A DNA stretch of 64,000 nucleotides from positions 18,389-82,388 of the forward strand of contig JAZKYO010000045.1 in assembly GCA_045612185.1 (NCBI GenBank), read 5' to 3'. Of the stretch, positions 30,367 to 59,789 are shown one piece after another. Position 1 is the first letter of the stretch, and every line of letters starts with the position of its first letter. Position numbers and translations under genes: made by a program. Source of the DNA: Eubacteriales bacterium. GTDB taxonomy: Bacteria > Bacillota > Clostridia > Oscillospirales > CAG-272. The notes under the pieces were generated by a model. That model was not told the DNA's origin. It worked only from the letters and a program-made list of their open reading frames with translations, and did not search any database.

Positions 30367-33300
30367 ATGGAGGGAAGTATGCTATACTCAAAAAATAAAC
30401 GAGACGAAAAACTTGATACCGAGCTTTTTAAAAATCCTACATCAGACTATAGAGCTGCGCCTTTCTGGGCGTGGAATTGCGAGCTTGACCGTGACGAGCT
30501 GTTGCGCCAAATTGATATTTTTAAAGAGATGGGCTTTGGGGGCTATCATATGCACGTGAGAACGGGTCTCGCTACCCCGTATATGAACGAGGAATTTATG
30601 GCTCATATCAAGGCGTGCGTAGAGTACGGCAAAGAGATCGGTATGCTGTCGTGGCTATATGACGAGGATAGATACTCATCGGGATGCGCAGGCGGCAAGG
30701 TGACAAAGGATCATCCGGAATACCGAAGACAAATAATGATACTGTCCTGCAATCCCGACTACAAGCCATCGGAGCTCTCACGTGTGATCGCCCGATTTGA
30801 CGTGGTTTTAAATGAGGAGAGCAGACTTGTAAGCTATTGCCGTCTTGCCGATGGTGAGGTTGCCAAGCACAAGCAGATGACCGCATATCATGAATACGCC
30901 GGAAACAGAAATTGGCGAAACGGTCAGGCAGATGCGGATACGCTTAATCCCGACGTGACACGACGCTTTATTGATCTTACCCATGAGGCGTATGCCCGTG
31001 AGGTTGGCGACGATTTCGGCGACGCGGTTCCCGCTATTTTTACAGACGAGCCTTATTTCAGCCGTGTGGTGAGCCTTAGATTTGCCGATTGTAGTCAGGG
31101 AAAGATAGATATAGATATGCCGTATACCGCCGATCTTGATGAAACATACCGCGCTGTGTACGGTGAGTCGTTGATAGACCGCTTACCCGAGCTTCTTTGG
31201 GATCGTGCGGACGGACTTCCGCAAGTGACAAGATACCGTTATTTCGACCATGTGTCAGAGCGTTTCTCCCGTTCCTATTCGTATGTGGTCGGTGAATGGT
31301 GCCGTGCTCACGGCTTGGCGTATACCGGACATATGTTAGACGAAGAGGGGCTTTATTCTCAGGCTACTTGCAGCGGTGACGTTATGCGATCCTATCAGTA
31401 TTTTGATATCCCCGGTATTGATATGCTTTGCAATAAAATAGAGTTGACAACCGCAAAGCAATGTCAGTCGGTGGTGCGTCAGGCAGGCAAGGCCGCTATG
31501 GTGTGTGAACTTGACGGAGTGACCGGATGGGATTTTGATTTTCGTGGTCATAAGCTTCACGGTGATTGGCAGGCGGCGCTTGGCGTGACTGTGCGTGTCC
31601 CTCACCTTTCGTGGTTGTCTATGAAGGGCGAGGCAAAGCGTGACTATCCCGCATCCATTTCTTATCAATCCCCGTGGTACGAGGAATATCGTTGCGTGGA
31701 GGATCATTTTGCACGTGTTGCCACAGCTCTCACAAGGGGAAAGCCCGTGGTTCGCGTCGGTGTGATCCATCCCATTGAAAGCTATTGGTTGCGCTACGGA
31801 CCTGTTGATCAAACCACTCTTGAACGTGAGAAGCTGGAGAGTAATTTTGAAAAGATCACAGAGTGGTTGGTTCGCGGCAATATTGATTTTGATTTTATTT
31901 GTGAGTCTACTTTGCCCAATTTTTGCGCTAAGGGTGACAATCCGCTTCACGTAGGAGAAATGGCGTATGAGGCAGTGATTGTTCCCGCGTGTGAAACCTT
32001 GCGCTCGACCACGCTTGAACGCTTGGAGGCCTTTGCGGATGCGGGCGGCAAGCTGATTTTTATGGGAGATGCTCCCACATTTGAGGATGCTGCCCCAAGC
32101 AACCGCGGTAAGAATCTTTTTGAAAGAGCAACTCGCGTTCCTTTTGACAGAGGCTCTATTTTAGCTGCCCTTGGTGAACAGAGGGACGTTGAGATTCGAA
32201 CCCCCGACGGACATTTTACTTGGAAGCAGATCCATCAGCTTCGCAGAGATACAGACGGACTTTGGCTGTTTATAGCGCAATGCGGTGAGCCGTATAATAA
32301 GGATATTGCAAGCAAAGAAACCGTAACCGTTTCGGTGCGCGGTGAGTATACGCCCGAACTTTGGGATACGCAAAGCGGCAATATCAGCCGAGTGGCGTTT
32401 AACCATAAGAGCGGAAAGACCGTGTTCACCTTATCGCTTTACGATTACGATTCAGCATTGATTTTCTTGAAGGACGGTATATGTGAGTCACTTCCTGTTT
32501 CCGTGGTACCCCAAAAGACTCTTGTGGGCGAAGTGCCGAGCGAGGTGAAATATTCTCTTACTGAGTCCAACGTAATGCTTTTGGACGTTGCGCAGTTTTC
32601 GTTGGACGGAGGCGAATGGCAGGAAAGAGAAGAGCTGCTTCGAATTACCAAACGACTTCGCAAGCAATTCGGTGTTGCCGATGATATTTATATGCTTCAG
32701 CCGTGGGCGTGGAAGAAAAAGTCTGCGGAGCATATGCTTTCTCTTAGGTTCGAGATTACAAGTGATATTGAGGTGACCGCCCCCATTCTTGCAATTGAGG
32801 ATGGTGACAAAATCTCAATTGCCTTCAACGGAGAGCCGATTGCTTTTCGGGATCAAGGCTATTATACTGATTCTGCTATCCGCAAGACCGCGCTTCCTCC
32901 AATCTGTAAGGGAACCAACGAGCTGATTCTTACAATGCCGTTTGGCGACCGTACCGACGTTGAGAATTGCTATCTTTTGGGAGATTTTGGAGTGGAGGTC
33001 ATGGGGCGAAAAAAAACGGTTACCAATCTTCCTAAAACTCTTGTGTTTGACGATATTTGTAAACAAGGGCTTCCGTTCTACGGCGGCTCGGTGAAATATC
33101 ATTTTCCAATAGTGTGCGAGGATGACGGCGAGGCTTGGATTGAAATTTCGCACTTCCGCTCGGCTGTCCTTGCTGTTTATGTAGACGGTGAGCGAAAAGA
33201 TACGGTTGCGTATCCTCCGTATTTTGCAAGTCTCGGACGGCTTACGGAGGGCGTGCATCAGGTGACGGTGGAAGCCTTTGTTTCCCGTCAAAATTGCTTT

Positions 33301-33441
33301 GGCAACGTACATTGCGCCGATGAAAAGCTGATCCGTTGCGGAAATGCCGCATGGCGTACAGAAGGGGATAGTTGGACGTACGAGTACCGACTGTCACCGC
33401 AGGGAATTATCAGTACCCCGATATTATTCAAGGAAGGATAA
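30367..33441 (+). CDS. Large glycoside hydrolase-like protein (GH106-like / jelly-roll GH superfamily; family uncertain)
   Basis: 1024 aa. The N-terminus YRAAPFWAWNCELDRDELLRQIDIFKEMGFGGYHMHVRTGL is the P-F-W-x-W-N ... G-x-G-G-[FY]-x-x-H-x-R start shared by a family of large bacterial glycosidases. The start could instead be ATG 30379. Confidence 0.5.
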   Translation: MEGSMLYSKNKRDEKLDTELFKNPTSDYRAAPFWAWNCELDRDELLRQIDIFKEMGFGGYHMHVRTGLATPYMNEEFMAHIKACVEYGKEIGMLSWLYDEDRYSSGCAGGKVTKDHPEYRRQIMILSCNPDYKPSELSRVIARFDVVLNEESRLVSYCRLADGEVAKHKQMTAYHEYAGNRNWRNGQADADTLNPDVTRRFIDLTHEAYAREVGDDFGDAVPAIFTDEPYFSRVVSLRFADCSQGKIDIDMPYTADLDETYRAVYGESLIDRLPELLWDRADGLPQVTRYRYFDHVSERFSRSYSYVVGEWCRAHGLAYTGHMLDEEGLYSQATCSGDVMRSYQYFDIPGIDMLCNKIELTTAKQCQSVVRQAGKAAMVCELDGVTGWDFDFRGHKLHGDWQAALGVTVRVPHLSWLSMKGEAKRDYPASISYQSPWYEEYRCVEDHFARVATALTRGKPVVRVGVIHPIESYWLRYGPVDQTTLEREKLESNFEKITEWLVRGNIDFDFICESTLPNFCAKGDNPLHVGEMAYEAVIVPACETLRSTTLERLEAFADAGGKLIFMGDAPTFEDAAPSNRGKNLFERATRVPFDRGSILAALGEQRDVEIRTPDGHFTWKQIHQLRRDTDGLWLFIAQCGEPYNKDIASKETVTVSVRGEYTPELWDTQSGNISRVAFNHKSGKTVFTLSLYDYDSALIFLKDGICESLPVSVVPQKTLVGEVPSEVKYSLTESNVMLLDVAQFSLDGGEWQEREELLRITKRLRKQFGVADDIYMLQPWAWKKKSAEHMLSLRFEITSDIEVTAPILAIEDGDKISIAFNGEPIAFRDQGYYTDSAIRKTALPPICKGTNELILTMPFGDRTDVENCYLLGDFGVEVMGRKKTVTNLPKTLVFDDICKQGLPFYGGSVKYHFPIVCEDDGEAWIEISHFRSAVLAVYVDGERKDTVAYPPYFASLGRLTEGVHQVTVEAFVSRQNCFGNVHCADEKLIRCGNAAWRTEGDSWTYEYRLSPQGIISTPILFKEG

Positions 33442-35051: not shown

Positions 35052-35235
35052 TATTCAGACTCCTATGTATAGATTTCCTATATTTTACCATTTTTTAAAA
35101 GTCAATATTCTTTTGCTTTTTTTGTATCTGTTTCTGCGGCAAACCAAAAATTAGTATTGCAAAAATGAGTTCGAATCATATGCCCAAATTACAAAGTATC
35201 GCATTGCCAAAAATCTTCCGGTTTGCACTCGCCGC

Positions 35236-36009
35236 TTACGTTGCTTTATAGTCCTTAGGCGCACACCCTACGCGGCAGGTGAATTCTCTTGAAAAATGCG
35301 AGGGATCCATGTATCCGCACGCCTCCGCCACCTGTCCCACCGAGAGGGCCTCATACGCCAAAAGCTGCTTGGCATATCTGATGCGCAGGGAAATGATATA
35401 ATCCTTCGGTGAGGTACCGAATCTCATAAAAAACAGCTTGCGGAAATATACCTCGCTGATGCCGCAAAGAGCGGCCAACGACGCCACCGTAAGTTCAGGA
35501 TCGGTAAATGACGCGGAAATACGTTCTACCGCGGGCTCGATCAATTGATATTGGGCGTTGGTCTGATATTTCCGCCTTCCTTCTTCAACAAGTTGAAGCA
35601 AGATGTCATATACCGCTTTTTTGGCGGTCAGACAGCGGCAGTCGCTTTGCGTGCGCCATTCCTTTTCAGCAGTTTTGAAGATCTTGACCAGCTTTTCGCT
35701 GTTTCGAAAATGCAATGAAAACGGCTCGCACCAAAAGTCCTCCTCCACCTCAAAATTGATGGCGTAGCATCCACCTCTCGTTTTGGTTTTTACATAATAA
35801 GACGAGCCTTTGGGCAGATAAAACAGGTCACCGCCCGCGGTTTTCATTTCTCTTCCGTCGGAAAAAACGTAGGTCTTTTCGGAGTCTTCGTCGTTCAGCA
35901 CGAAGCCGTGGGACGGACGGTCCTTATGCACAATCCTCCCCGTGTCTGCCTTTACGTATACCACCACGTCGATCTTCTTTACCGTAAGTGAATCCCACTT
36001 GTCAAACAT
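35236..36009 (-). CDS. AraC/XylS family transcriptional regulator
   Basis: 257 aa. ...LTVASLAALCGISEVYFRKLFFMRFGTSPKDYIISLRIRYAKQLLAYEALSVGQVAEACGYMDPSHFSREFTCRVGCAPKDY. Confidence 0.85.
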   Translation of the reverse strand: MFDKWDSLTVKKIDVVVYVKADTGRIVHKDRPSHGFVLNDEDSEKTYVFSDGREMKTAGGDLFYLPKGSSYYVKTKTRGGCYAINFEVEEDFWCEPFSLHFRNSEKLVKIFKTAEKEWRTQSDCRCLTAKKAVYDILLQLVEEGRRKYQTNAQYQLIEPAVERISASFTDPELTVASLAALCGISEVYFRKLFFMRFGTSPKDYIISLRIRYAKQLLAYEALSVGQVAEACGYMDPSHFSREFTCRVGCAPKDYKAT

Positions 36010-36035
36010 AGCATCACCTCAAATTTATTATAAGG

Positions 36036-36096
36036 TGCTGTTTCGATTTTGTCAAGTGTTTATTATAGAATGTTGTTTCGATTTCGTCAAGTGTTT
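36036..36096 (+). promoter_or_regulatory. Two 26-bp direct repeats, candidate AraC-family activator site
   Basis: TGCTGTTTCGATTTTGTCAAGTGTTT (36036-36061) and TGTTGTTTCGATTTCGTCAAGTGTTT (36071-36096) have a 35-bp period and end 11 nt before the -35 of the 36210 promoter. Direct-repeat half-sites abutting the -35 are the classical AraC/XylS layout. Confidence 0.5.
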
Positions 36097-36107
36097 TGCT
36101 TTTTCTA

Positions 36108-36135
36108 TTTACATTTCAGGGGAACGTGTTATAAT
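36108..36135 (+). promoter_or_regulatory. Promoter of 36210..37634
   Basis: TTTACA (36108-36113), 16-nt spacer, TGtTATAAT (TATAAT 36130-36135). Confidence 0.5.
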
Positions 36136-36209
36136 AGGAACAATGGCGATGATGCGTAACGTGTCGGCGCTTACGATTACGAATGTGCAATTATTGCGGA
36201 GGGTATAGC

Positions 36210-37634
36210 ATGGAACATTCACTGAATTTCTTTGGAAATGAGTTGGCTGAAAAATTTTCGAAAATCGTCAATACAAGCTTCAACGATATGGAAGGGCTTT
36301 TGCTTGTGCGCAACCGAGAGGATCCGCTTTACGGATATTGCTACCAAGCATTGCCCGGCTTTGGCGGCCGCAATTCCATGTGGTGTCGCGATATGGGAAC
36401 GCTCATTCGCGAGTTGGCGCTTTACGGTCGTCTTGACAGTGCGTGTGCTCTTTCTTCCTGTTTGATTGACCGTGTGGGACTGAATGTGGACGGCTATTAC
36501 ACCTTCCCCCGATTTTTTACTCAGGTCGAGTACGGAAAAAGCGGCGATGAGCTTGACGGCACGGGTGCGATTGTAATCGGGCTGATCCTGCTTTGGGAGC
36601 GTCTTTCGGACGATTGCCCCACGAAAAAGAAAATAAGAGATTTTTTGGAATGCAAAGCCTCCCCCATCCGTTGGATTCTGTCCAAACTCAAAGACAAAAA
36701 ATTGATTGAGGGAACGGGTGAATTTGGCTCGGGATATACCATTGAGTCGCCAAGCTGCAATGCGGTACAGAATAATCTTGTCAGGCTGTCTCTGATCGGC
36801 GGTGCTGATTTCTTCGCCGCTATCGGTGAGAAAGGGCTTTCGGGCGAGTGCCTTAAGGCTTCACGGATCATAGAGGAAAACATTTGCCGCTATCTGATCA
36901 AGGACGGCAAACTTGTCTGGTGCGTTGACCCCGAAACCCTTGAACCCAACCCCGAAATCATAGGAGCGGAGATCAACAGAGGCACGACATTTATTAACGG
37001 TGTCTACGTTATGTCCGCGGATATATTGGGTCTTGGTTTTACCAAAGAGGATGCGCCCCTTTACCGCGCGGGTGAGAATACCTTTGACGATCTGATGGAA
37101 CGTCCCCTGCGCAAGGCGCTTTTTGAAAAATACGGAATGTATCAGCAATTCGACGATTTCTGGAAGGGCTTTACGGGTCCTGCCTACGGACACGGCTACG
37201 CTATGCAGTTTGCCGCATTGACGGGACGTCGCGCTCTTTTGAACCGGTTGCTCGGTTATTTTGTTGACTACACCATCAACCCCGATCCCCTGCCCAACAA
37301 GTTGGTGCGAGAGTCTCCGTACTGGATCTACGAGCGGTATTACGTTCCCGAAGCCTTGGATTTCGGAACGATCCCAGAGGCCTCCTGCGGACCGCTTACC
37401 ATCGTTTGTGTGACCGAGATCCTCAAGGTGGCGCGACTGATTGCGGGCATCGACCACGTAACGGGCGAGATCAAGCCCACACTTCCCGAAGGTTGGAGCG
37501 GCTTTTCTGCCAAGGGATTCCCTATGCTGAAGGACGGTAAGACGGTGATGTGCGACATTGAGTACCGTATTGACGGCGACGGTAAGGTGTCGCTTGAGGT
37601 GAAGCATCAAACGTCTGACGCAACATCACAATAA
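36210..37634 (+). CDS. Hypothetical protein, possibly a helical (alpha/alpha)-barrel glycosidase-like protein
   Basis: 474 aa from ATG 36210 (GGAGGG RBS). I recognise no diagnostic motif. The position between an AraC gene and GH genes suggests a carbohydrate-active role. Confidence 0.35.
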   Translation: MEHSLNFFGNELAEKFSKIVNTSFNDMEGLLLVRNREDPLYGYCYQALPGFGGRNSMWCRDMGTLIRELALYGRLDSACALSSCLIDRVGLNVDGYYTFPRFFTQVEYGKSGDELDGTGAIVIGLILLWERLSDDCPTKKKIRDFLECKASPIRWILSKLKDKKLIEGTGEFGSGYTIESPSCNAVQNNLVRLSLIGGADFFAAIGEKGLSGECLKASRIIEENICRYLIKDGKLVWCVDPETLEPNPEIIGAEINRGTTFINGVYVMSADILGLGFTKEDAPLYRAGENTFDDLMERPLRKALFEKYGMYQQFDDFWKGFTGPAYGHGYAMQFAALTGRRALLNRLLGYFVDYTINPDPLPNKLVRESPYWIYERYYVPEALDFGTIPEASCGPLTIVCVTEILKVARLIAGIDHVTGEIKPTLPEGWSGFSAKGFPMLKDGKTVMCDIEYRIDGDGKVSLEVKHQTSDATSQ

Positions 37635-37645
37635 GAGGTGATTTT

Positions 37646-37933
37646 ATGGAATTCATTTTGGGATGTAACTATTGGGCGTCCAATGCGGGCGCGGATATGT
37701 GGCGTGATTTTGATATCGAGTGCATTGACAAGGATATAAGGATTCTCAGCGAGTACGGCGTGAAGCATATGCGAGTGTTTCCCAACTGGCGGGATTTTCA
37801 ACCGGTAGAGCCGATTCTCGGTGGCAGTGGCGTTTTGCTGGGATACACCGTCAAAGAGCAACCGATTTCGTCAAGTGGTTTTGCTTTTATCATTTACAAA
37901 AGCCTAAAAAATGATATAATGTATGTGAGGTGA
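37646..37933 (+). pseudogene. 5' fragment (first about 74 codons) of a paralog of the clan GH-A gene at 43713
   Basis: MEFILGCNYWASNAGADMWRDFDIECIDKDIRILSEYGVKHMRVFPNWRDFQPVEPILGGSGVLLGYTVKEQPI matches 43713.. at 67 of 74 residues, with many synonymous DNA differences. Similarity ends at about 37866 and the frame runs into promoter-like DNA. Confidence 0.75.
37893..37920 (+). promoter_or_regulatory. Promoter of the GRE-2 operon (duplicated copy of the 36108 promoter region)
   Basis: TTTACA (37893-37898), 16-nt spacer, TGaTATAAT (TATAAT 37915-37920). The segment 37863-37898 is about 90% identical by eye to 36079-36113. Confidence 0.55.
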
Positions 37934-37937
37934 TAAT

Positions 37938-40157
37938 ATGGAATACATCAAGAACTGCGATTACGATTATATTATAAACAAATATCACGACACAAATAAG
38001 CCCTATAACAGCCTTAGCCGTTTTGTCCGCAATGACGAAATATTCGACGAGGACAGCGGAACCGAATACTTTACCCTTAAGGCGCAGGTTATGGAGAACG
38101 ACGAAAAGATAGCTCATCTTTCGCACAACGTTCGCAAGGCAACCGCCTTTGCAAAAATTCTTGAGGGTACAAGAATTTCCTGCGACAGCCGAGACCGATT
38201 TCCTGCCATAAATGCGATTTCACGCCCTCTTTCCGACCTGCAGGGCAAGTGGCGCAAGGAGCTTTTCAACGAAATTCTACCCGAAATCGGCAAGAAAATG
38301 ATTGAACTTGAAAAGGCGGGCACGGTAACTATCTGGCCCGACTTCGACCACGCCGTTCCCGATTGGGTGGTTATTTTAAACCGCGGCTTCAGCGGTATTC
38401 TTGAGGACAGCGAAAAATCCTGCGCTTCTAAGAAGTGGGACGAGGAAAAGGACAGCTTTTTCGAGGGTGTAAAAATAACCTACGAGGCAATAATCGCCTT
38501 TATCGACCGTCTTGCCGACCGTGCCGAAAACACAGATGGCTCGCAAAGAATGGCAAAGGCATTGAGAAACATTGCTCACAATCCCCCCTCTACTTTCTAC
38601 GAGGCACTTCTTACCAACTATCTTTTCTTTATGATTTGCGAGCACGTTGACAATATGCAGGTGCGCTCCCTCGGAAACTTTGACAGAGAGTTTTATCCTT
38701 TCTACAAAAACGACCTGGCAAACGGTATCAGCGAGGAGGAAATACGCACAGACCTTGCATATTTCTTTATGCAGTTCACCGCCATTGACAACTACTGGAA
38801 TCAGCCTGTTTATCTCGGCGGGTGCGACGAAAACGATATTGCAATCACCAACGAGCTTTCCTATCTCTTCCTTGAAGTTTATGACAAGATGGGAATATTC
38901 AATCCCAAAATTCAGCTTAAAATTTCAAAATCCACACCCAAGGAATTTACTCTTAAGGCACTTGACATGGTGCGCAGAGGTCACAGCTCTATTGTTTTTG
39001 TCTGCGACGAGACCATGAGAGCCGCACTTCGCAAGATTGGCGCCAGCGAGGAAGAAGCAAGGCTTTGCGATGTTAAGGGTTGCTATGAATACTCGGTTCG
39101 AGGGGCATACGACGTGGGTATGAACTACCTTAATCTCTTAAAGCCTCTTGAGTATGCGCTTCACTGCGGAAAAGACGGAGTTACCGGTGTTATGGGCGGT
39201 CTTGAGTGCCCCGCACCCGACCAATACAAGAGCTTTGACGAAATCCTTGCGGAATACAAGCGTCAGCTTAAATACATCATCGACGTAACCATTGAGACGG
39301 TAAACACCTTTGAAGATTATCTTGACTACGTAAACCCCGCATTTGTATTTTCGGCAACATTCCCATCCTCATTAAACAGCGGTATGTCGGCCACCTGCGG
39401 AGGTGCGCTTGACAACAACTCTGGGCTTGCAGTCGGCTTTACCGCAGATATAGCCGACTCCCTTGCAATGATAAAGAAGTACGTCTTTGACAAAAAAGAG
39501 ATTACCCTTTCGGAGCTTACCGAAATTCTCGACAAGAACTTCGAGGGTAACGAGCTGTTAAGACGAAAGCTGTTTAACGACCCCGACAAATTCGGAAACA
39601 ACAAAGATCTCCCCGACGGCATCGCCAAGGAGATTGTAGGCTACATCACAAGCCTTGTAAGCCACCGCAAAAACGCCAAAAAGCGCGGCGGCATCTGGGA
39701 CGTGGGCTACCACACGGCAAGAATGTGCTATGTTCAGGGCGAAATCACGGCGGCTTCTCCCAACGGCAGACACCTTGGTGACGAGCTTGCAAAGAATCAC
39801 TCGGCATCTATGGGACAAAACAGAGCGGGCGCAACGGCGGCAATTCTTTCAACCACCAAGCTTGACGCCCCCACGTACAGAGGCGACAGCTCACTTGACC
39901 TTGGGCTTCTTCCCTCCGCTGTAAAGGGAGACGACGGTCTTGAGGCAATGTACGGACTTTTGCGCACCTTTATGGACAAAGACGGGCATGCGCTTCAAAT
40001 AAACGTTCTCAACGCCGACACACTTCGTGACGCTCAAGTACATCCCGAAAAATATCAAGACCTGCAAATCCGCGTTTGCGGCTGGAACGTGCTGTGGAAT
40101 AATATAAACAAGGAAGAACAGGACGGATTTATCAAACAGGCTGAGGGACTTATATGA
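37938..40157 (+). CDS. Glycyl radical enzyme, PFL2/dehydratase-like family (GRE-2)
   Basis: 739 aa. The C-terminal motif is DLQIRVCGWNVLWNNI. The candidate thiyl loop is DVKGCYEYSV (Cys-x-Glu). SPNGRHLG stands at the position of the TPDGR motif. GAGGTG RBS. Confidence 0.8.
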   Translation: MEYIKNCDYDYIINKYHDTNKPYNSLSRFVRNDEIFDEDSGTEYFTLKAQVMENDEKIAHLSHNVRKATAFAKILEGTRISCDSRDRFPAINAISRPLSDLQGKWRKELFNEILPEIGKKMIELEKAGTVTIWPDFDHAVPDWVVILNRGFSGILEDSEKSCASKKWDEEKDSFFEGVKITYEAIIAFIDRLADRAENTDGSQRMAKALRNIAHNPPSTFYEALLTNYLFFMICEHVDNMQVRSLGNFDREFYPFYKNDLANGISEEEIRTDLAYFFMQFTAIDNYWNQPVYLGGCDENDIAITNELSYLFLEVYDKMGIFNPKIQLKISKSTPKEFTLKALDMVRRGHSSIVFVCDETMRAALRKIGASEEEARLCDVKGCYEYSVRGAYDVGMNYLNLLKPLEYALHCGKDGVTGVMGGLECPAPDQYKSFDEILAEYKRQLKYIIDVTIETVNTFEDYLDYVNPAFVFSATFPSSLNSGMSATCGGALDNNSGLAVGFTADIADSLAMIKKYVFDKKEITLSELTEILDKNFEGNELLRRKLFNDPDKFGNNKDLPDGIAKEIVGYITSLVSHRKNAKKRGGIWDVGYHTARMCYVQGEITAASPNGRHLGDELAKNHSASMGQNRAGATAAILSTTKLDAPTYRGDSSLDLGLLPSAVKGDDGLEAMYGLLRTFMDKDGHALQINVLNADTLRDAQVHPEKYQDLQIRVCGWNVLWNNINKEEQDGFIKQAEGLI

Positions 40158-41020
40158 CAAGCTCACCCATTACGGTAATAAGGCAAAACAGATGTGTTAT
40201 CGGCGAGGGACCCGTATGGAATGCGGCTGACGAAAAACTTTATTTCGTCAACGCCAGGGGGCAAAACGAAATATGTACATACGCACCCGAAACAGGGATT
40301 ATTTCGGCGCGTGCTTATGACGAGGGCACATCTGCGATCGCCTTTTCAAAAGACGGCAGAATGCTGGTGTCACGCAGAAGCGGGGCGTTCTACTTGAACG
40401 AGGACGGCTCGACCTCACCGCTTTATGACTGTGAAAAATACGATTTGCGATACTGCAACGACGCCAAAGTGGGACCCGACGGAAGATTTTACGTTGGAAC
40501 GCAAAGCGAAAAACGTGTTAAGGTGTCGGACAAAATAAACGGCAGGCTCTACAGTATTGACAAAGACGGCAACGTGCGCATTTTGCTTGAGGGTCTTATC
40601 CTTTCCAACGGCATGGAGTGGTCAATTGACGAAAAATTCTTTTACCATACCGACAGCGACACGTGGACTGTAAAAGAATACTCCTTTGACAAGCAAAGCG
40701 GAGATATTGAATTTACAGGCAGACAGATAAAAGTTCCCTATGTTGACGGGTTTACAATAAACCAAAACGGTTACTTGCTTGCCGCTTGCTGGGGGTGCGG
40801 TCACATTGCCGTGATAGACACCGCCGACATGAGTATACACGAGCACATTCCGATTCCCGCATCAATCCCCGCAAGCTGCGGATTTTTCGGCGATAACATG
40901 GATATGCTGGCAATAACCACCGCAAGCTACAACGCCGACCTTACAAAAGATGAAAACACAGGTTACCTGTGCACGGCACAAATGAAAACAGGAGGAAGAA
41001 AACCCTACCTTTTCGGTTGA
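40154..41020 (+). CDS. SMP-30/gluconolactonase/LRE family beta-propeller (lactonase-like)
   Basis: 288 aa. RCVIGEGPVWNAADEKLYFVNARGQNEICTY...CNDAKVGPDGRFYVGT...SNGMEWS...YHTDS... ATGA overlap with the GRE-2 stop (40154-40157). Confidence 0.7.
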   Translation: MTSSPITVIRQNRCVIGEGPVWNAADEKLYFVNARGQNEICTYAPETGIISARAYDEGTSAIAFSKDGRMLVSRRSGAFYLNEDGSTSPLYDCEKYDLRYCNDAKVGPDGRFYVGTQSEKRVKVSDKINGRLYSIDKDGNVRILLEGLILSNGMEWSIDEKFFYHTDSDTWTVKEYSFDKQSGDIEFTGRQIKVPYVDGFTINQNGYLLAACWGCGHIAVIDTADMSIHEHIPIPASIPASCGFFGDNMDMLAITTASYNADLTKDENTGYLCTAQMKTGGRKPYLFG

Positions 41021-41026
41021 AAAACA

Positions 41027-41956
41027 ATGATAAATTCAAAAAACAGTTTAAAAACTCTCATGCTCGCCCTTTTGGTAATGGCGCTTTGGGGCTCGCTTTT
41101 CCCCATGATAAAAATAGGATACGCATCATTCAGCATTGCGTCATCAGACATTCCCACAATTATACTTTTTGCGGGAATGAGATTTACATTCAGCGGAATT
41201 ATTCTCATCGCTATTTTCTCTGCCAAATCTAAAAGCTTTGCCGTGCCAAAGCGGTGCGAGATATTGCCGATACTCCTTGGCGCGCTTGTAACAATAATCC
41301 TGCACTACATCTTTACCTATCTTGCACTTTCAATCGGAGAGGGCTCAAAGACCGCAATAGTAAAGCAGATATGCTTTCTTTTCCTCAGCTGCTTTGCCTT
41401 TCTGTTTGACAAGAGCGACAAGTTTACGGTCAATAAAGTTATAGCCGCAATTTTTGGATTTGCGGGAATAATTGCCACGGCATACGACGGAACGGCAATT
41501 GTATTTATGCTTGGCGACATTTTGCTTCTTTTAGCTTCAGCTTGCTCGGCGGCGGGAACTGTAATTTCAAAAAAAGCAACGCAAATTGTAGCACCTATGA
41601 AATTTGTAGCTTACTCCCAGTTCTTTGGCGGTGTATTTCTTCTTGCCATAGGATTGATACTTGGCGGAAGAATAACACACGTTGACGCAAAATCAATCGG
41701 AGTATTTCTCTACATATGCGCGGCATCAATAACGGCATACACGCTTTGGAATATGCTCCTTAAGAGCGAAAGTGTGTCAAAGCTTTCGATAATAAAATTC
41801 ACAGAACCGCTGTTTGCCGTCATATTCTCGGGTATGATCTTGGGCGAGGATATTTTCAAGCTCTCCTACCTCGTTGCCCTCGTTCTGCTGCTTTTGGCGT
41901 TACTCACGGAAAACGGCGTTTGGAAGCCCATTCGAAAAAAGGAGAACAAGAAATGA
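41027..41956 (+). CDS. EamA/DMT family permease
   Basis: 309 aa, about 10 TM segments, two EamA-like halves. Confidence 0.7.
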   Translation: MINSKNSLKTLMLALLVMALWGSLFPMIKIGYASFSIASSDIPTIILFAGMRFTFSGIILIAIFSAKSKSFAVPKRCEILPILLGALVTIILHYIFTYLALSIGEGSKTAIVKQICFLFLSCFAFLFDKSDKFTVNKVIAAIFGFAGIIATAYDGTAIVFMLGDILLLLASACSAAGTVISKKATQIVAPMKFVAYSQFFGGVFLLAIGLILGGRITHVDAKSIGVFLYICAASITAYTLWNMLLKSESVSKLSIIKFTEPLFAVIFSGMILGEDIFKLSYLVALVLLLLALLTENGVWKPIRKKENKK

Positions 41957-42594
41957 AAAAGGTTTTATTGATAGGAGATTCCATTCGTCAAGGCTACGAC
42001 AAATACGTGAAGCAGGTGCTTGCCGATTCCTGCGAGGTGTATTATCCCAAAGAAAATTGTCGATTTGCTCAGTTTGTCCTCCGTCATTTATCCGATTGGA
42101 AGAGGGAACTGAATCTCGGTGACGACGTGGATGCGGTTCACTGGAACACGGGACTTTGGGACACTCTCGTTCAATACGGGGACGGATGTCTAACACCCCC
42201 TGAGGTGTATGAAGCTTTCATCGATAGGATCTGCCGCAGAATCCGCGTGCTTTTTCCAAACGCTAAGGTCATCTTCGCCACCTCTACTCCCGTTGTGGAA
42301 AGCCGCTTCCCCAACCCCGCTGTTTCCCACAGAAAAAACAGAGACATCGAAAAATATAACGAGATCGCCGCGAATATTGCAAAGAAATACGGCTTTTTCG
42401 TCAACGACCTGTACGCCGCCGTCAAAGATGTGCCCGAGGATTATTATTCCGATATGACGCACTTATACACCCCCGAGGGCACCCGCATTCTTACAAGCGC
42501 GGTACTGCGCTCCATTTGCTCTGCCCTTGAGCTTGACACCGTCGAATTTACCATCTCGGATTATCAGGCGATCAAAGACGTTTTGGGTCTTTGA
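41953..42594 (+). CDS. SGNH/GDSL hydrolase (esterase)
   Basis: MKKVLLIGDSIRQGY (block I), HWNTGLWD (block III-like), YSDMTHLY (block V D-x-x-H). The start overlaps the permease stop (ATGA, 41953-41956). Confidence 0.7.
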   Translation: MKKVLLIGDSIRQGYDKYVKQVLADSCEVYYPKENCRFAQFVLRHLSDWKRELNLGDDVDAVHWNTGLWDTLVQYGDGCLTPPEVYEAFIDRICRRIRVLFPNAKVIFATSTPVVESRFPNPAVSHRKNRDIEKYNEIAANIAKKYGFFVNDLYAAVKDVPEDYYSDMTHLYTPEGTRILTSAVLRSICSALELDTVEFTISDYQAIKDVLGL

Positions 42595-42669
42595 GAGCTT
42601 TTGCCAAACCAACCCGGAAGCCTACAAGTTGATTCTTGCAAAACAACCGGCACAAACTGACTTAAAAAA

Positions 42670-42692
42670 AGCAAAAAGGCTCTCTTTTTGCT
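42670..42692 (+). terminator. Weak hairpin terminator/attenuator after the SGNH gene
   Basis: AGCAAAAAG-GCTCT-CTTTTTGCT (9-bp A/T-rich stem) directly abuts the next -35. No separate U-tract. Confidence 0.3.
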
Positions 42693-42720
42693 TGACAAGC
42701 ATTCAATATAAGTGTATAAT
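42692..42720 (+). promoter_or_regulatory. Consensus SigA-type promoter for 42806..45560
   Basis: TTGACA (42692-42697), exactly 17 nt, TATAAT (42715-42720). Confidence 0.6.
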
Positions 42721-42805
42721 AGTTGACACAGTCGGGCACATAGTAACCGCATATATTTTACGATACCCGATACCGATTGGTCAACAATGGTAAGGAGCTT
42801 AAATT

Positions 42806-43690
42806 ATGACTTTTGAAAAATACGGAACCTCGCCCGTTTTCGGAAACGCCGATACAGGCACCGTGTTCGACGGCTACGTCTGGGTGGATGGCGGAAGATA
42901 CAGAATGGACTTCTCCTGGCGCGGAAAAAAGGCGTGCGCCGTAACCTTCAGCGACGACGGGATCCATTGGAGCGAGCCTGTCATCACCCTTGCCAACGAT
43001 CTCGCAACGGGTTGGGAGGACGATCTGAACAGAAACTGCGTACTGAAGGTAGGAGACGTATACAAAATGTGGTACACCGGGCAGGCGCGCGGTTACAGTT
43101 ACATCGGTTATGCGGAGAGCAGTGACGGAATACACTTTGAGCGCCGGTCCACCGAGCCGATCATAATTCCCGAACTGCCCTGGGAGCGTGAGTCTGTAAT
43201 GAACCCCTGCGTTTTATTTGAGAACGGCGTATACCGTATGTGGTATTCTGCGGGCGAAACTTACGAGCCTAACGTAAACGCATACGCTGAGAGCGTCGAC
43301 GGTATCCATTGGATAAAGAGCCGTATAAACCCCATTTTCACAAAAAACAAACATAACGTATACGAGCAGAACCGTGTTGGAGGTTGCCACGTCATTCACA
43401 CGGAGGATATGGGATATCTTATGTTCTATATAGGCTATGAGGACATTAACACGGCTCGCATCTGCGTGGCGAGAAGCAAGGATGGTATTCGGGGCTGGGA
43501 GCGTTCCTCTCTCAATCCCCTTATCGAGCCTACCGCGGGAAGTTGGGACAGTGAAGCGACCTACAAGCCTACGGTGGTGTGGAACGAAAAGGACGGAAAA
43601 TGGATGCTTTGGTATAACGGCAGGACGGAAAACAGAGAATATATGGGCTATGCCTACCGAAACGGTAGAGATCTTTTTCCCGAAACGTAG
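42806..43690 (+). CDS. Five-bladed beta-propeller glycosidase-like protein (GH43/GH117/GH130/GH32 superfamily)
   Basis: 294 aa with five repeats of the pattern [YF]-x-[MF]-W-Y ... S-x-DG-I-x-[WF] (FSDDGIHWSEP, AESSDGIHFER, AESVDGIHWIK, RSKDGIRGWER, KWMLWYNG). No signal peptide. Confidence 0.5.
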   Translation: MTFEKYGTSPVFGNADTGTVFDGYVWVDGGRYRMDFSWRGKKACAVTFSDDGIHWSEPVITLANDLATGWEDDLNRNCVLKVGDVYKMWYTGQARGYSYIGYAESSDGIHFERRSTEPIIIPELPWERESVMNPCVLFENGVYRMWYSAGETYEPNVNAYAESVDGIHWIKSRINPIFTKNKHNVYEQNRVGGCHVIHTEDMGYLMFYIGYEDINTARICVARSKDGIRGWERSSLNPLIEPTAGSWDSEATYKPTVVWNEKDGKWMLWYNGRTENREYMGYAYRNGRDLFPET

Positions 43691-43712
43691 GTTTAAAAAG
43701 AAAGGAACAGAC

Positions 43713-45560
43713 ATGGAATTTATTTTAGGATGCAATTATTGGGCATCAAACGCCGGTGCCGATATGTGGCGTGATTTTGATATTGAGTGCATTGACAAGG
43801 ACGTCCAGATCCTCAGTGACTACGGCGTAAAGTATATGAGAGTGTTTCCCAACTGGCGGGATTTTCAACCCGTAGAGCCTGTTTTGGGTGGCGGCGGTGT
43901 TCTTTTGGGATATACAATAAAGGAACAGCCTATACCCGATAATCCGTATTATCTTGACACCGAGATGCTTGATAAATTTTCCTTGTTTCTCGACGTTTGT
44001 AAAAAGTACAACATCAAGATTATTGTGGGGCTTATTACAGGCTGGATGAGCGGAAGGCTTTTTGTTCCTCCCGCTTTGTACGGAAAAAACGTGATCTCAT
44101 CGCTTACGGCGCAGTACTTTGAACAGCTTTTTATAAAGGGCTTTATCGAGCGCTTCATTGACAGAGAGGAAATTTATGCGTGGGATCTCGGAAACGAGTG
44201 CAACTGTACGGGCGGTGCCGAAAACCGCTGGGAAATCGCAAGCTGGGTTGCAATGATGACAAACGCCATAAAAGCCGCCGACAGCAGCCGCCCCGTGATT
44301 TCGGGTATGCACGAGCTTTATGTGGCGCAGAAAAAATGGACGATTGCCGACCAAGGGCTTTACGTGGATATGCTTACTACCCACCCATATCCGTTCTGGT
44401 GTCAGCATACAGGCATTGACGAAACTCTGTCTTTAAGAACAACCATGCACGCCACCGCGCAAACAAAGCTTTATGCCGAAATCGGCGGAAAGCCCTGCCT
44501 TGCCGAGGAGATAGGAACTATGGGACCTTCGATTTGCAGTGAAGAAAAGGCGGCAGACTTTTTGAGAGTGAATATGTTTTCTTTGTGGGCTAACGGCGCC
44601 GGCGGAGTAATGTGGTGGTGCGCCCACGACCAGAATGAGCTTGAAAGCAACCCCTACAGCTATCAGATGGTTGAAAGGGAACTTGGTATGCTTTACAATG
44701 ACCGCACACCCAAGCCCGTGCTAGGGGAAATGAAGAAATTCTCCTCTTGGATTGACAAACTTGATTTCAAGCTGCCTGCGGCACAGACCGATGCGGTTTG
44801 CCTGCTGACACGAGACCAAAACCACTGGGGCGTGGCTTACATGACCCACATACTTTGCAAAAAGGTGGGGCTTAACTGCAGATTTGCTTATGCCGATAAT
44901 CGACTTCCCGACTCAAAGCTTTACATAATGCCCTCAATAAGCGGTATTCAGATCATGCCCAAGAGCAGATACGACGAGCTGAAAAAGAGGGTTCGCGAGG
45001 GCGCTGATCTGTACATATCCTGCGGCAATGCGGTGTTAAGCGAATTTGAGGAGCTTACGGGGCTTAAGGTGATGGATTCCTATACGTGTAACGAATCCTT
45101 TAATGCGCAGATAGGTGACGAAAGTATCGCCTTTTCCCGTCCGAGAACTGTGACTGTCAAGCCTGTTTCTGCTGAGGTACTTGCATACGACAGCAATAAT
45201 AATCCTTTTGTTTCGGTAAACAAATACGGTAAGGGCAGAGTGTTTTTTGTAAACGCACCGATTGAAGGTAATCTCATTGAAAAGCACAACGCATTTGACG
45301 GCAATACGCATGTTGTGTACCGCAAAATTTTTGCGGATCACATAAATAATTACCCCGTAGAGCTTTCAAACAAGGATATTGTATTTACCTATCATCCCGT
45401 AAAGGACGGCGGATACGTTGTGGCGCTTAACCACTATGACGAGGAAAAGGAATTTGCCCTTAAGCTTAGTGACGGCTATTCGGTAGATAAGATCTATCAC
45501 GGCGATACGCGGAAAATCAATCCCTTTGACGCTTGCGTGTTCAAAATAGTAAGAAAGTAA
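43713..45560 (+). CDS. Clan GH-A TIM-barrel glycoside hydrolase with GH42-like C-terminal domain
   Basis: 615 aa from MEFILGCNYWASNAG. The tracked ORF start at 43437 would overlap the upstream gene. WDLGNECN (acid/base) and CLAEEIGT (nucleophile). Confidence 0.65.
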   Translation: MEFILGCNYWASNAGADMWRDFDIECIDKDVQILSDYGVKYMRVFPNWRDFQPVEPVLGGGGVLLGYTIKEQPIPDNPYYLDTEMLDKFSLFLDVCKKYNIKIIVGLITGWMSGRLFVPPALYGKNVISSLTAQYFEQLFIKGFIERFIDREEIYAWDLGNECNCTGGAENRWEIASWVAMMTNAIKAADSSRPVISGMHELYVAQKKWTIADQGLYVDMLTTHPYPFWCQHTGIDETLSLRTTMHATAQTKLYAEIGGKPCLAEEIGTMGPSICSEEKAADFLRVNMFSLWANGAGGVMWWCAHDQNELESNPYSYQMVERELGMLYNDRTPKPVLGEMKKFSSWIDKLDFKLPAAQTDAVCLLTRDQNHWGVAYMTHILCKKVGLNCRFAYADNRLPDSKLYIMPSISGIQIMPKSRYDELKKRVREGADLYISCGNAVLSEFEELTGLKVMDSYTCNESFNAQIGDESIAFSRPRTVTVKPVSAEVLAYDSNNNPFVSVNKYGKGRVFFVNAPIEGNLIEKHNAFDGNTHVVYRKIFADHINNYPVELSNKDIVFTYHPVKDGGYVVALNHYDEEKEFALKLSDGYSVDKIYHGDTRKINPFDACVFKIVRK

Positions 45561-45660
45561 TTATAGCACCGAAGAGCGGTCACGTGACCGCTCTTCTTTT
45601 ATGCTTTGTTTTCTTAAAATAGCCTCAATCTATTGAACTTTCCACTTCTTCTGAGGCTAA
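45561..45660 (+). repeat. Modular intergenic repeat, copy G (terminator form 2, M)
   Basis: TTATAGCACCGAAGAGCGGTCACGTGACCGCTCTTCTTTTATGC (hairpin 45571-45596 then TTTT) parallels copy A at 2181-2224. Then AAAATAGCCTCAA and TTGAACTTTCCAC. Confidence 0.75.
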
Positions 45661-45873: not shown

Positions 45874-48800
45874 ATGAAAAGCTTGAAGAAACCATTAGCT
45901 CTACTCTTGACGATGCTTATGCTCGTCTCAGCGCTTCCGCTTGGCGTGTTTGCGGCGGAAGCCACCGCTTTGGCTACAGCAACAACCGCTGTGACTGCCG
46001 AAGACAACAAAATTTACTACAAGTATACCTTTGAGGAGGCTACGCCAAGCGATACTGTCGAAAGCAGAGCTATATCTGCTGTTGGTGAGAAGGATTCAAA
46101 TCCTATGAAGCTCAGTCAAGACGGTTCGGTTCCGGGGCACGTAGTTAAGGAGAACGGAAATCAGTTCTACAGAGTTGAATATCCCAAGACCTACACCTCG
46201 TGGCACGGTATGCGCTTTTCGCTTTACGACGGTGTGACCAACCATATAATCACAAACGGTGTTGCTATTGACTTTGATTTCAGATGGCTGGGTACAGGTA
46301 GCGTAACGACGAATGCAGGAATCAATTTCGTTAAGCTCCGCAGAAGCAAAGGCGGCAATATTGAGGCCTATCTTATTGAAGGCTCGGTAGATGCCAACGG
46401 CTCGTTGACTTTGAAGACCGGCAGTAGCGTTATCGCAACCTTCCCCAAGCAGGGGGCTGAAGGACATAACCCCAACTTTACCAATATCCGCGTTGAGTAC
46501 TATGACACTACCTATACCTATAATATCTATATAGGCGGTCAGTGTGTTGTGGAAGGCATGTCGGTCGATCTTGTGGCCAGTGAAGATATGCGTACGGGAC
46601 AGTTTATTGATTCCAAGTTTGACAGTGATTACTTTACTACCTCAAGAGACAACATCTCTATTGCAGGAGACCGTTGGAGCTTTGAGATTGCACGTATCAA
46701 TGCAACAAAAGATAAAGAGTTCAACTACGTTATGGACTTTGACAACGTGTACATAAACGGTATCGGTCCCAAAGAGGGAAGAAGCTACTATTATAACAAC
46801 AGTTTCGATAACACTACCCTTAACGGTATTACGGCACGTACCACCGATATGACTTACTATTTCAGAGGGACTGCGCCTACTATTACGAAGACAGGCGACA
46901 ACGGATATATTTCATTCGGTGCAAAATCAAGAATGGATTTGCGCGATACGTATCAGATAATACAGGACGGTAACTGGACTGTTTCCTTCAAGCTTCAGGG
47001 TACGGTCGCGAGTACAGACACCGGTAAGAAATGCATACTTCGTATACACAACCGAATAGATACTCTTCAGTTCCTTCAGCTTGACAAGGACGGTAATCTT
47101 TATCTTGGAAACAATTCGGATCCGGGTACAACCCGTCAGCAAATTCCCGGGGTTAAAGTTCCCGCGGTAGGCTCGGACGATTGGGTTGAGATAACTGTTT
47201 CATGTCTTGTAAATAACCAGAATCATACCGGTGTTTACTCGGATTTTGTAGCGCCATCGTCTCCTGCAAGAAGATATACCTTTATTCTTTGGGTTGACGG
47301 CAAGCTTTGCGGTGCAATGACCCACAGCGACGCACAGTTCTTAAGAAGTGAACTTAATGCGAGCGGTAAATACACGGTAAACGATATGTCGTTTACGCAG
47401 AACATCCTTGACAAGGAGCTTACCCACGAGGAAATGACGGCAAAGGGATATACTCTTGTTGAGGAAACATCTACGCGAAAAACCTATTACAACGAAAAGA
47501 CCTACGATTACTATCAGTTCCAGTATGCGGATGGCGCCTTTAAGACAGGAGTGTTCTTTGATTTCAAGACCGCATTTTCAGCTTCTTCTAAGGCCATGAG
47601 CACGGCAGAAGGTAAAGCCGTTCTTGCAGGAGGAAACTGGACTTTGAGCCAAACAGGAACCGCCAGCACAAAGGATAACGTTGAAAGCCGCAACGATACC
47701 TACCTTAACTCGGTTACCGGCGAAAAGGCAATAGTTACTATGACACGCACCGCGGGATCGACAGCCGACTTTGCTTTCAAATCCGCTGTTCGCCACGTGG
47801 CTATTCCCAGCTATACAAACAACGACGTTCTTGGTTTCTTTGACCAGAATGCTTCTACGATTACCGCTAATATAGATGACCTTAAGCTTTATTCCGGTAT
47901 CGGTTATCCAACTTACGCGGATGGCGCTGATGATAAAGAAGGGGTTATCAACGAGGTTGAGTTTGCAAATCTTGCTACCAACATAACTGTTTCGGGTGTT
48001 GGAAACGTTGTTAATAACCGCGGCGGACGTCACGGTATCATATATTCCGAAAATTTTGTTTCTTCCAAGGTTGAATCTAAGTCCGAGACAGCGAACGGAA
48101 AAAAAGTTAATTACGTAACCCTTACCTCGGGTACAGACGACGTTTTCCTTCATCTCAATGCCGACTATTCGGGCGGTAAGGTGTTTGCGGCAGAGCTGAC
48201 CGTGAGAAAGCTCTCGGGTCTGACCGAGGCGTTCCATCTTATCAGACTTTTCCGTGAGGGCGAAAATGACGCCTCAATCACTACTACAGATCTACTTAAG
48301 TATTCATATACTAAGAAGACACCGTTCTTCACTATGAACGGCGTTTCGGCTTACATAGTGGACGGTGCGGGCAAGCCCATTTCCTTGGCGGGTAATGAGT
48401 GGACTACATTCAGAGTGGTTATTGATGAAAGCGGCAAGAAGCCTTTGGTGACATTCTACGTAAATGGAAAGGTTGCCAACTACTATACCGACGATATGCT
48501 AGTTCCTCTCAAGGCTATAAATCTTGAAGGCGTTATCTCGGATGATTTCAGCGCGCACAAGTACGATATAGACCAAAGAGTTACGTTTATTAAGACTATA
48601 GGTTCTTCGGCTATCATCGATCTTCTTGATGCCAAGATAGAGTATGCAGAAGCTCCCAAGAATTTCGTATGGGCTGACTCGGTTGCTCTTGACTTCTCCA
48701 AGATAAGTGACGTTTCACAGCTTGGTGACCAGTTCCTTATAAGTGACGGCGTTTATATTGAAAACGGCGAGCTTGTAATTCCCAATGGCGAGACCTTCGG

Positions 48801-59633: not shown

Positions 59634-59740
59634 AGTAAAACCTCCGTTTTTCTTTTATTATAACATTATCGCAATATTACGGTAAATGTCAATTGCTATA
59701 TTATATTTAGCTTAAATGATACTTATTCTTGCGTTTTATA

Positions 59741-59769: not shown

Positions 59770-59789
59770 GTAAACAAGAGGTGAGGATT

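Follow-up and report, generated by a model that had tools for sequence, protein, structure and literature searches.

A glycyl radical enzyme outside the characterised families and its lactonase partner in an operon of gut Clostridia: a candidate for radical chemistry on sugar-derived substrates

We analysed a stretch of 64,000 nucleotides from an Eubacteriales bacterium (contig JAZKYO010000045.1), hereafter the window, and in it an operon that starts with the gene of a glycyl radical enzyme (GRE), GRE-2. This PFL2-type GRE of 739 amino acids is encoded at 37938..40157 on the plus strand, belongs to a clade without a characterised member and contains PFL-like (3.9e-97) and Gly_radical (8e-21) domains. 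It is followed on the same strand by a cytoplasmic lactonase of the SMP-30/gluconolactonase/LRE type, SGL (40154..41020; 288 amino acids; Pfam SGL 1.9e-48), by an EamA/DMT permease with ten transmembrane segments (41027..41956; 309 amino acids; two EamA repeats, 1.1e-28) and by a cytoplasmic SGNH esterase (41953..42594; 213 amino acids from the ATG at 41953; Lipase_GDSL_2 1.5e-9). All four open reading frames (ORFs) lie where a previous sequence-only reading of this DNA had placed them, and the ATGA stop/start overlaps which it described between GRE-2 and SGL and between EamA and SGNH are both real. The GRE-2/SGL junction reads ...ATA TGA / ATG ACA. The SGNH esterase begins with MKKVLLIGDS, lacks a signal peptide and is a probable sugar O-deacetylase. 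The best curated match of the permease was TIGR00950 (carboxylate/amino acid/amine transporter), whose score of 87 bits is below the cut-off of this model, and its role may be either import of the substrate or export of an acid product.

The unit had been proposed to possess its own TGn promoter, and a promoter scan indeed detected TTTACA-16-TGnTATAAT at 37893..37920. At the other end of the operon, an AT-rich hairpin (42669..42693, no strand assigned; 10-bp stem with three G-C pairs) had been proposed at 42670-42692 as its terminus. The stem exists, but GACAAG and not a T run comes after it on the plus strand, and a terminator scan assigned it to the minus strand. A perfect sigma-70 promoter of the next gene, TTGACA-17-TATAAT, lies directly after it at 42692..42720. 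The operon unit also exceeds the limits first drawn around it: it adds the gene of an AraC-family regulator with HTH_18 and HTH_AraC domains, divergent from the GRE-2 operon (35236..36009, minus strand), a duplicated putative operator and promoter, and a gene for a cytoplasmic, glycoside-hydrolase-like protein of 483 amino acids (36183..37634, plus strand) that is probably co-regulated with the GRE operon.

Relatives of GRE-2 were collected in two ways. A protein search over 5.8 billion sequences yielded about 1000 database clusters; the best 120, which were examined, were full length (~740 amino acids), 60-98% identical to GRE-2 and all unnamed or 'hypothetical', and came from metagenome-assembled genomes (MAGs) of Clostridia, Oscillospiraceae and Eubacteriales and from metagenome assemblies. 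A genome survey with one genome per GTDB species gave 260 relatives, mostly from the gut of goat, sheep, deer, yak and buffalo. The best 80 of the 260 (50-74% identity) were retained with 10-kb flanks and compared by tblastn, ORF clustering and gene maps; surveyed GRE loci are labelled L001, L073, L088 and so on. Invariance of residues refers to an alignment of 32 relatives with 61-98% identity to GRE-2, and correspondences to known GREs rest on HMMER and MAFFT sequence alignments.

Both GRE superfamily domains scored above their cut-offs in GRE-2 (PF02901, 326.9 bits, cut-off 24.3; PF01228, 75 bits, cut-off 22.2). The motifs IRVCGWNVLW and KGCYEYS, the latter with Cys-x-Glu, had been noted before; they are present and their core residues, R712-V713-C714-G715-W716 and G381-C382-Y383-E384, are invariant in the relatives. 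A missing radical Gly or Cys, named beforehand as an argument against the proposal, was therefore not what we found: Gly715, Cys382 and Glu384 are all there and common to the family. In the SPNGR motif, G610-R611 are invariant and P608 and N609 at least 90% conserved. When compared with YbiW, PflD and GRE-1, a second GRE of the window, SPNGR and RVCGW, which replace TPDGR and RVAGY respectively, were atypical, as had been remarked. The loop RVCGWNVL occurred in 73 of 82 family members, and from the conserved RVCGW loop we predict that the glycyl radical would reside on Gly715. The Cys loop contains a single Cys, unlike the Cys-Cys pair of PFL. Glu384 aligned with Glu435 of glycerol dehydratase (GD), and His138, invariant within a WPD-x-DH-x-VP motif, with GD His164, HypD His160 and the corresponding His of YbiW and PflD. 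Because of these two alignments and the conservation of C382, the Cys/Glu/His set of GRE dehydratases and isomerases appears complete in GRE-2. According to a 2026 review, all C-O eliminases and isomerases retain the CXE motif, whose Glu forms a hydrogen bond with a hydroxyl of the substrate. At other positions GRE-2 departs from these enzymes. GD His281 and HypD Asp278 both align with Gln241, GD Asp447 with the invariant Gly394 and GD Tyr640 with His592. The family has an invariant polar and aromatic set of its own, comprising Arg243, Ser244, Asn285, Tyr286, Trp287, Gln289, Asn396, Tyr397 and Arg595; at the level of sequence, the segments around Arg243 and Arg595 correspond to strands of the active site in GD, HypD and IslA-type enzymes.

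The best NCBIfam match of GRE-2 was the PFL2-3 subfamily, with 328 bits for a cut-off of 678, and the HypD model gave 296 bits for a cut-off of 1100. Over all equivalog models (HypD, CutC, HpsG, HpfG, PflD-type, HPAD, IAD, PFL) the scores ranged from 85 to 296 bits, with cut-offs of 994-1150; each fell 3- to 10-fold under its cut-off, which argues against orthology to any characterised member. Sequence matches in the PDB extended from E=1e-14 (PFL) to E=4e-67 (HypD). Clustering with a characterised GRE had also been listed as an outcome that would count against the proposal, but identity to all characterised or solved GREs was only 20-26%, or 18-25% in the fold matches, and all curated cut-offs were missed. 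The AlphaFold2 (AF2) model of GRE-2 (pLDDT 84.9, pTM 0.88) was matched by Foldseek to 50 GRE chains with a probability of 1.00 and TM-scores of 0.73-0.83, in line with the ten-stranded barrel of the superfamily. Fold matches were about equal across solved eliminases, isomerases, decarboxylases and succinate synthases, glycerol dehydratase being on top. Judged by these profiles, residues and models, GRE-2 is an intact CXE-class GRE that lies outside all characterised CXE families.

The partner encoded directly after it is a member of PF08450 (165.7 bits, cut-off 26.3) and matched regucalcin at 8e-29. Residues E18, N102, N152 and D198 of SGL align with the metal-site residues of SMP30, which we take to be E18, N103, N154 and D204, so that the site is retained. 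Lactone hydrolysis by SGL is predicted from family and metal-site residues. A protein search with SGL produced an identity ladder from 97% down to ~55%, similar to that of GRE-2. Three SGL homologues on long contigs, sampled independently of the GRE survey, were situated directly after a GRE of 738-745 amino acids in 3/3 cases, with a divergent AraC gene upstream and with EamA and activase genes further downstream within the operon. SGL belongs to a subfamily devoted to the GRE system.

The same association emerged from the GRE loci, where the AraC gene was counted over 83 loci and operon content over the 63 loci in which 2.5 kb or more of sequence was available downstream. An AraC gene was found in 73/83 loci, as a rule in divergent orientation and at a distance of ~110-160 bp upstream of the GRE gene. 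The operon included an activase in 48/63 loci, SGL in 17/63, EamA in 15/63, an SGNH esterase in 7/63 and a SASA-type carbohydrate esterase (PF03629) in 8/63; an esterase of either type was present in 12/63 operons and any accessory gene in 26/63. The usual layout of the family is thus a divergent AraC gene, the GRE, optional SGL, EamA and SGNH/SASA genes, and then the activase. Operons with SGL are dispersed over the GRE tree and occur in several gene orders (GRE-SGL-EamA-activase, GRE-EamA-SGL-activase and GRE-SASA-SGL-SGNH-activase), with GRE-SGL junctions of -4, -1, +1, +5, +6 or +10 nucleotides and one exception. Among close metagenomic relatives, L092 (88% identity) shows AraC followed by GRE-SGL-EamA, and L090 (84% identity) AraC-GH43 followed by GRE-SGL. 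A GH43 gene shares one operon with AraC in L005, L088 and L090. The pairing of GRE and lactonase, whose absence from every other genome would have spoken against the proposal, is hence found in these closest relatives, in the 17 loci of the survey and beside all three SGL homologues. Given its recurrence in many other genomes, the gene set is beyond chance.

Some loci are more elaborate. Super-operons with two or three consecutive GRE paralogues were seen in L095 (3084..12855), L075/L076, L047/L051 and L001 (10001..19523); the order in L095 is GRE738-SASA-SGL-GRE719-667aa-SGNH-EamA-activase. Next to the GRE-2 family, a sister clade (719-733 amino acids) whose loop is RVCGWNAY/VY was met repeatedly. 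Such arrangements suggest either sequential radical steps or a radiation of the family over related substrates. In L001-L003 and L024, an ORF of 95 amino acids between GRE and activase (12225..12512 in L001) is a homologue of the EamA N-terminus and is 41-71% identical to the EamA regions found at other loci. It resembles a permease gene in decay, as if accessory genes were being lost.

Upstream of GRE-2, the 17-mer TTCGATTTYGTCAAGTG occurs in three copies in the window, for an expected number of 0.03. Two tandem copies (at 36042 and 36077, plus strand) lie in the intergenic region between AraC and the 483-aa gene, together with a promoter TTTACA-16-TGnTATAAT at 36108..36135 that drives this gene; the third (37861..37877, plus strand) is located 16 bp upstream of the -35 element of the GRE-2 promoter. 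L090 and L092 have conserved the element, together with an identical promoter, in the region between AraC and GRE. We consider TTCGATTTYGTCAAGTG, also written TCGATTTCGTCAAGTGGTTTTG, as a putative AraC operator. Operator and promoter are duplicated in the window and in L073, so that two units, the 483-aa gene and the GRE operon, would be under the control of the AraC protein. The 483-aa protein gave no Pfam or PDB sequence match. Its AF2 model (pLDDT 91.8) predicts an (alpha/alpha)6 barrel and, at the C-terminus, a beta-sandwich; it is remotely similar, at 9-15% identity, to the GH78, GH15, GH94 and GH63 enzymes that Foldseek retrieved. The search for homologues gave about 50, some outside Clostridia (e.g. 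Hydrogenedentes), and the protein may represent an undescribed glycoside hydrolase (GH) family. No Rfam match and no tRNA were present in the 64-kb window that could point to RNA control.

Between this gene and GRE-2 lies an ORF of 95 codons (37646..37933, plus strand) without Pfam match that ends in the duplicated promoter. It shows 81% DNA identity to the 5' end of a GH5-like gene in L073 and, reciprocally, positions 43713..43933 of the window match the L073 copy of the fragment at 81%. The fragment thus duplicates the start of the GH5-like gene downstream of the operon and is the scar of an insertion or rearrangement that built the locus. Three other identities were considered for it and ruled out. 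It is not a small GRE subunit, being a duplicated 5' fragment of a GH5-like gene; it is unrelated to the 95-aa ORF of L001; and it is no split-off N-terminus of the GRE, as the family measures ~740 amino acids and has its own conserved N-terminus. Comparison of 35221..45561 with L073 revealed flanks of 93-97% DNA identity, 72.6% for the fragment and the GRE segment and 80% for EamA and SGNH; SGL is absent from L073, where extra YgjV-like and MGH1-like GH genes are found instead. The GRE-SGL-EamA block thus appears to behave as an exchangeable cassette, and the pattern suggests that cassettes were replaced by recombination between paralogous GRE modules.

No activase is encoded near GRE-2. As claimed by the sequence-only reading for the surroundings, a CX3CX2C motif was absent from all stop-to-stop segments of at least 60 amino acids, and this holds for the whole 64 kb; tblastn of the window with four family or neighbouring activases returned chance-level matches only (one of 55 amino acids at E=0.007, the rest at E>0.6). 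The claim that the locus lacks an activase stands for the window and fails for the system, where 48 of the 63 family operons include one; the family activase passes TIGR02494 at 341 bits. In the GRE tree, the operons of the subclade of the window GRE (L005, L006, L007/8, L073 and the metagenomic L088-L092) are all devoid of an activase, so that its absence is a trait of this subclade and not of the whole family. The closest syntenic genome, the MAG JAZSPB01 of 'Eubacteriales bacterium SGB_153' with locus L073 (JAZSPB010000101.1), has no activase at the locus either. On another of its contigs, a family-type activase adjoins an SGL gene, 3.9 kb from a GRE paralogue with the RVCGW loop, and activation of GRE-2 in trans is therefore plausible. 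A 250-aa radical-SAM gene near L088 (86% identity) was discarded as candidate because the N-terminal motif of activases is missing from it and none of the family activases matches it. The activase of a neighbouring GRE module in L090 is doubtful as a shared activase, since the Gly loop of that GRE, RVSGF, differs. Activase specificity tracks the Gly-loop sequence according to the 2026 review.

Among known systems, glycerol dehydratase (1R8W), propanediol dehydratase (5I2G) and HypD (6VXC) share with GRE-2 the 10-stranded barrel (TM ~0.8), the Gly loop, the C-x-E Cys loop, the His equivalent to GD His164 and HypD His160, and a dedicated radical-SAM activase, present in most operons of the GRE-2 family. 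GRE-2 differs from them by an identity of only 24-25%, well under the curated cut-offs, by being ~50-100 residues shorter with deletions at the N-terminus and in the finger loop, and by RVCGW, SPNGR, a Gly for GD Asp447 and a Gln for HypD Asp278. Its partners are a lactonase, a DMT permease and carbohydrate esterases, whereas those of the eliminases are microcompartment, aldehyde-handling and proline genes. YbiW and PflD (8ID7, 8ID0) have the CXE motif and the conserved His in common with GRE-2. They catalyse ring opening of 1,5-anhydroglucitol-6-P and 1,5-anhydromannitol-6-P and, acting on sugar phosphates, are listed in the 2026 review as the only sugar-acting GREs. Identity of GRE-2 to both E. 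coli enzymes was 25-26%. The E. coli ybiW/pflD loci carry frwBCD/ptsA, ybiV and fsaA, encoding a phosphotransferase system (PTS), a sugar phosphatase and an aldolase, as well as adjacent activases, none of which is found at GRE-2; its operon, without kinase, PTS or aldolase, adds the lactonase instead. The absence of kinase and PTS makes an unphosphorylated substrate probable. In the Weimberg, Dahms and De Ley-Doudoroff pathways, an SMP-30 lactonase (e.g. the xylonolactonase XylC, 7PLB) likewise stands after the presumed lactone-making enzyme, and SMP30-type metal-site residues are kept in SGL of the window. There, lactones are made by an NAD(P) dehydrogenase; here a GRE takes its place, and lactone formation would be a redox-neutral dehydration. 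In class III anaerobic ribonucleotide reductase, the Gly loop RVCGYLG resembles that of GRE-2 in having a Cys directly before the radical Gly (RVCG). The remainder of GRE-2 is PFL2-like, unlike NrdD, and its loop aromatic is a Trp and not a Tyr. In agreement with the earlier statement that no characterised GRE pathway has this gene set, a literature search, thin on subscription journals, linked no GRE with an SMP-30 lactonase; GRE combined with lactonase, SMP-30, gluconolactonase or deoxy-lactone retrieved sulfoquinovose papers alone, which are unrelated. What is new here is probably a substrate or reaction and a pathway context, the enzyme class being already known.

We think it likely that GRE-2 is a C-O-cleaving GRE with a new function, which has a sugar-derived substrate and a functional tie to a lactone. 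As the best explanation of the whole we propose, tentatively and at somewhat less than even chances, an AraC-controlled cytoplasmic catabolic operon for a glycan-derived, unphosphorylated and probably O-acetylated sugar. In this operon, imported glycosides would yield the sugar through the action of the (alpha/alpha)6 glycosidase-like protein, or of GH43 in relatives, acetyl groups would be taken off by the SGNH esterase, and EamA would carry substrate in or acid product out. GRE-2 would be activated by an activase encoded outside the window, probably of the family type recognising the RVCGWNVL loop. The Gly715 radical would then generate a thiyl radical on Cys382 for a C-O cleavage of the 1,2-elimination type, with Glu384 as base and His138 as acid.

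The specific reaction that we favour for this enzyme, conversion of an aldose to a 2-deoxy-aldonolactone, is possible, but we would sooner expect it to need revision than to hold. The Cys382 thiyl radical would abstract the anomeric C1-H of the free aldose, Glu384 would deprotonate O1-H, the C2-OH would leave as water with assistance of His138, and return of the H atom to C2 would yield the 2-deoxy-aldonolactone, which SGL would hydrolyse to the 2-deoxy-aldonate. This would be diol-dehydratase chemistry applied to the hemiacetal C1-C2 diol. Loss of water from a C1 sugar radical to give a 2-deoxy-aldonolactone is a known reaction in carbohydrate radiation chemistry. A still more speculative idea, which we hold with a little less confidence, is that the family thereby performs a reaction class not yet known among enzymes, in which a free, unphosphorylated aldose would undergo radical dehydration across its hemiacetal C1-C2 diol and SGL would open the lactone. 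Sugar substrate, step order and lactone product are inferred from gene content, catalytic residues and synteny. The recurring operon genes (SGL, EamA, SGNH, SASA and activase) include no dehydrogenase able to make a lactone, which leaves the GRE as sole candidate for its source; the GRE is also favoured because the other partners act on glycosides or acetyl-sugars. That the lactonase occurs in some operons and not in others fits a step able to proceed spontaneously as well.

Several observations weigh against this proposal. Most family operons consist of GRE and activase alone, and ~60% have neither SGL nor EamA nor an esterase, so that the system can do without the lactone step. The surveyed loci showed no conserved genes downstream that would act on a 2-deoxy-aldonate. 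The GH families near the GRE differ among loci (GH43, GH30, GH28, GH10, GH20, GH2) and hence indicate no single glycan. Whether the GRE acts before or after the lactonase is not readable from synteny, and the invariant Arg243 and Arg595 could mean an anionic substrate, that is a sugar acid and not a neutral aldose. The EamA family is best known for exporters. The Gly loop, residues 711-718, was modelled with low confidence (pLDDT <50), the window has no activase although activases are thought to be loop-specific, and substrate, product and radical are all predictions from the genes.

The two arginines lead directly to a different order of events. SGL would first open a sugar lactone, and the GRE would then dehydrate or cleave the aldonate or uronate; or the GRE would dehydrate the lactone to a 2-keto-3-deoxy product that SGL opens, feeding a KDG-type pathway. 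The GRE-SGL linkage is equally compatible with that order, Arg243 and Arg595 in predicted active-site segments would suit a carboxylate, as would the carboxylate/amino acid/amine transporter family to which EamA comes closest, and UxuA-like and PfkB genes are located elsewhere in the window. It would nevertheless need a dehydrogenase or other lactone source, absent from the recurring operon genes, whereas the glycosidase and acetylesterase partners act on glycosides and not on aldonates. With a non-radical, UxuA-like aldonate dehydratase already in the genome, the GRE would moreover be a costly duplicate, and we regard this explanation as rather unlikely. Less probable again is a YbiW/PflD-like ring-opening isomerase for an unphosphorylated anhydro-sugar or glycoside, in which H-abstraction beside a hydroxyl would lead to ring or glycosidic C-O cleavage, the lactonase acting on a side product or a later intermediate. 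YbiW and PflD do prove that GREs can act on pyranose rings; the CXE motif and His are common to all three enzymes, and both isomerases are among the structural neighbours of GRE-2. Yet their 25-26% identity places them no closer than the dehydratases, the PTS, sugar phosphatase and aldolase context is missing, and a deoxy-ketose product would leave the lactonase without task.

GRE-2 might also never be activated in this genome, as a silent or decaying gene left after rearrangements had removed its activase. The 64 kb without activase, the apparent loop specificity of activases and the scars of the locus (duplicated promoter, GH5 gene fragment, swapped cassette) are compatible with such a relic, but the ORF is full length with all family-invariant residues, a 98%-identical copy exists elsewhere, and promoter, operator and translational coupling are intact. 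Furthermore, intact GREs without an activase in the operon persist throughout a subclade (L005, L007/8, L073, L088-92), and JAZSPB01 possesses the activase beside SGL, near a paralogue with the same loop, on another contig; a relic is accordingly improbable. Finally, GRE-2 could be a divergent copy of a known GRE such as PFL, glycerol/propanediol dehydratase, HypD, choline lyase or sulfonate lyase. Its best profile matches were indeed PFL2-3 and HypD, and its top fold match was glycerol dehydratase. The equivalog scores 3- to 10-fold under cut-off, identities of 18-25%, the single Cys in place of the PFL pair, the replacement of GD Asp447 by the invariant Gly394 and of HypD Asp278 by Gln241, and the lack of microcompartment, choline, proline or sulfonate genes render this very improbable.

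The surroundings of the operon are those of a glycan locus, as had been described: neighbours in the window are glycoside hydrolases (GH113, GH2, GH32, GH5-like, GH130/32-like and GH78-like), carbohydrate esterases and AraC regulators, and no microcompartment, choline, amino-acid or sulfonate genes were seen among the neighbours scanned. A tblastn search of the window for bacterial microcompartment (BMC) shells with a PduA-type protein reached E=2.9 at best, and no neighbour scanned has a BMC domain. Seven AraC-family regulators are encoded in the 64 kb (at 2701, 9008, 12771, 35236, 52285, 59781 and 60612), each adjoining a carbohydrate-active or redox gene, an unusually dense layout of one regulator per module. 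One of them forms an SDR + AraC pair (58896..60533) that also occurs near the GRE in L005. GRE-1 (13651..15900, 749 amino acids), the second GRE of the window, has no activase either and has its own divergent AraC gene (12771..13514). It is 27% identical to GRE-2, has the Gly loop RVTGF and scores under every NCBIfam cut-off; since its Cys loop SGCWG lacks the Glu, it is not a CXE eliminase. Three large ORFs, of 1024 (30367..33441; no Pfam match), 2065 (45874..52071; weak CE2_N trace only) and 1132 amino acids (55392..58790; three CBM96 repeats), probably encode uncharacterised carbohydrate-active proteins. Directly upstream of the first lies the gene of an Amidohydro_2 protein (29452..30363), unrelated to SGL. 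The Amidohydro_2 family includes fucono-/rhamnono-lactonases and LigI-type lactonases, and this protein is a possible second lactonase in the window.

To our knowledge, each new GRE function so far has revealed an unsuspected anaerobic pathway, be it from choline to trimethylamine or for hydroxyproline, sulfonates or anhydro-sugars. The 2026 review named unannotated GRE clades as the main gap of the field. The clade of GRE-2 is abundant in animal-gut and environmental metagenomes, is surrounded by genes of glycan degradation and possesses a dedicated partner, the lactonase, which is found in no known GRE pathway. The comparative data supply activase-bearing operons for reconstitution and a conserved putative AraC operator for an inducer search. 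If radical chemistry on free sugars holds true, it would constitute a new GRE reaction and a new route of fibre fermentation in ruminants and hindgut fermenters. If the 2-deoxy-aldonolactone proposal is correct as well, the family would provide a redox-neutral, phosphorylation-independent entry to anaerobic sugar catabolism, widespread in Clostridia of the herbivore gut.

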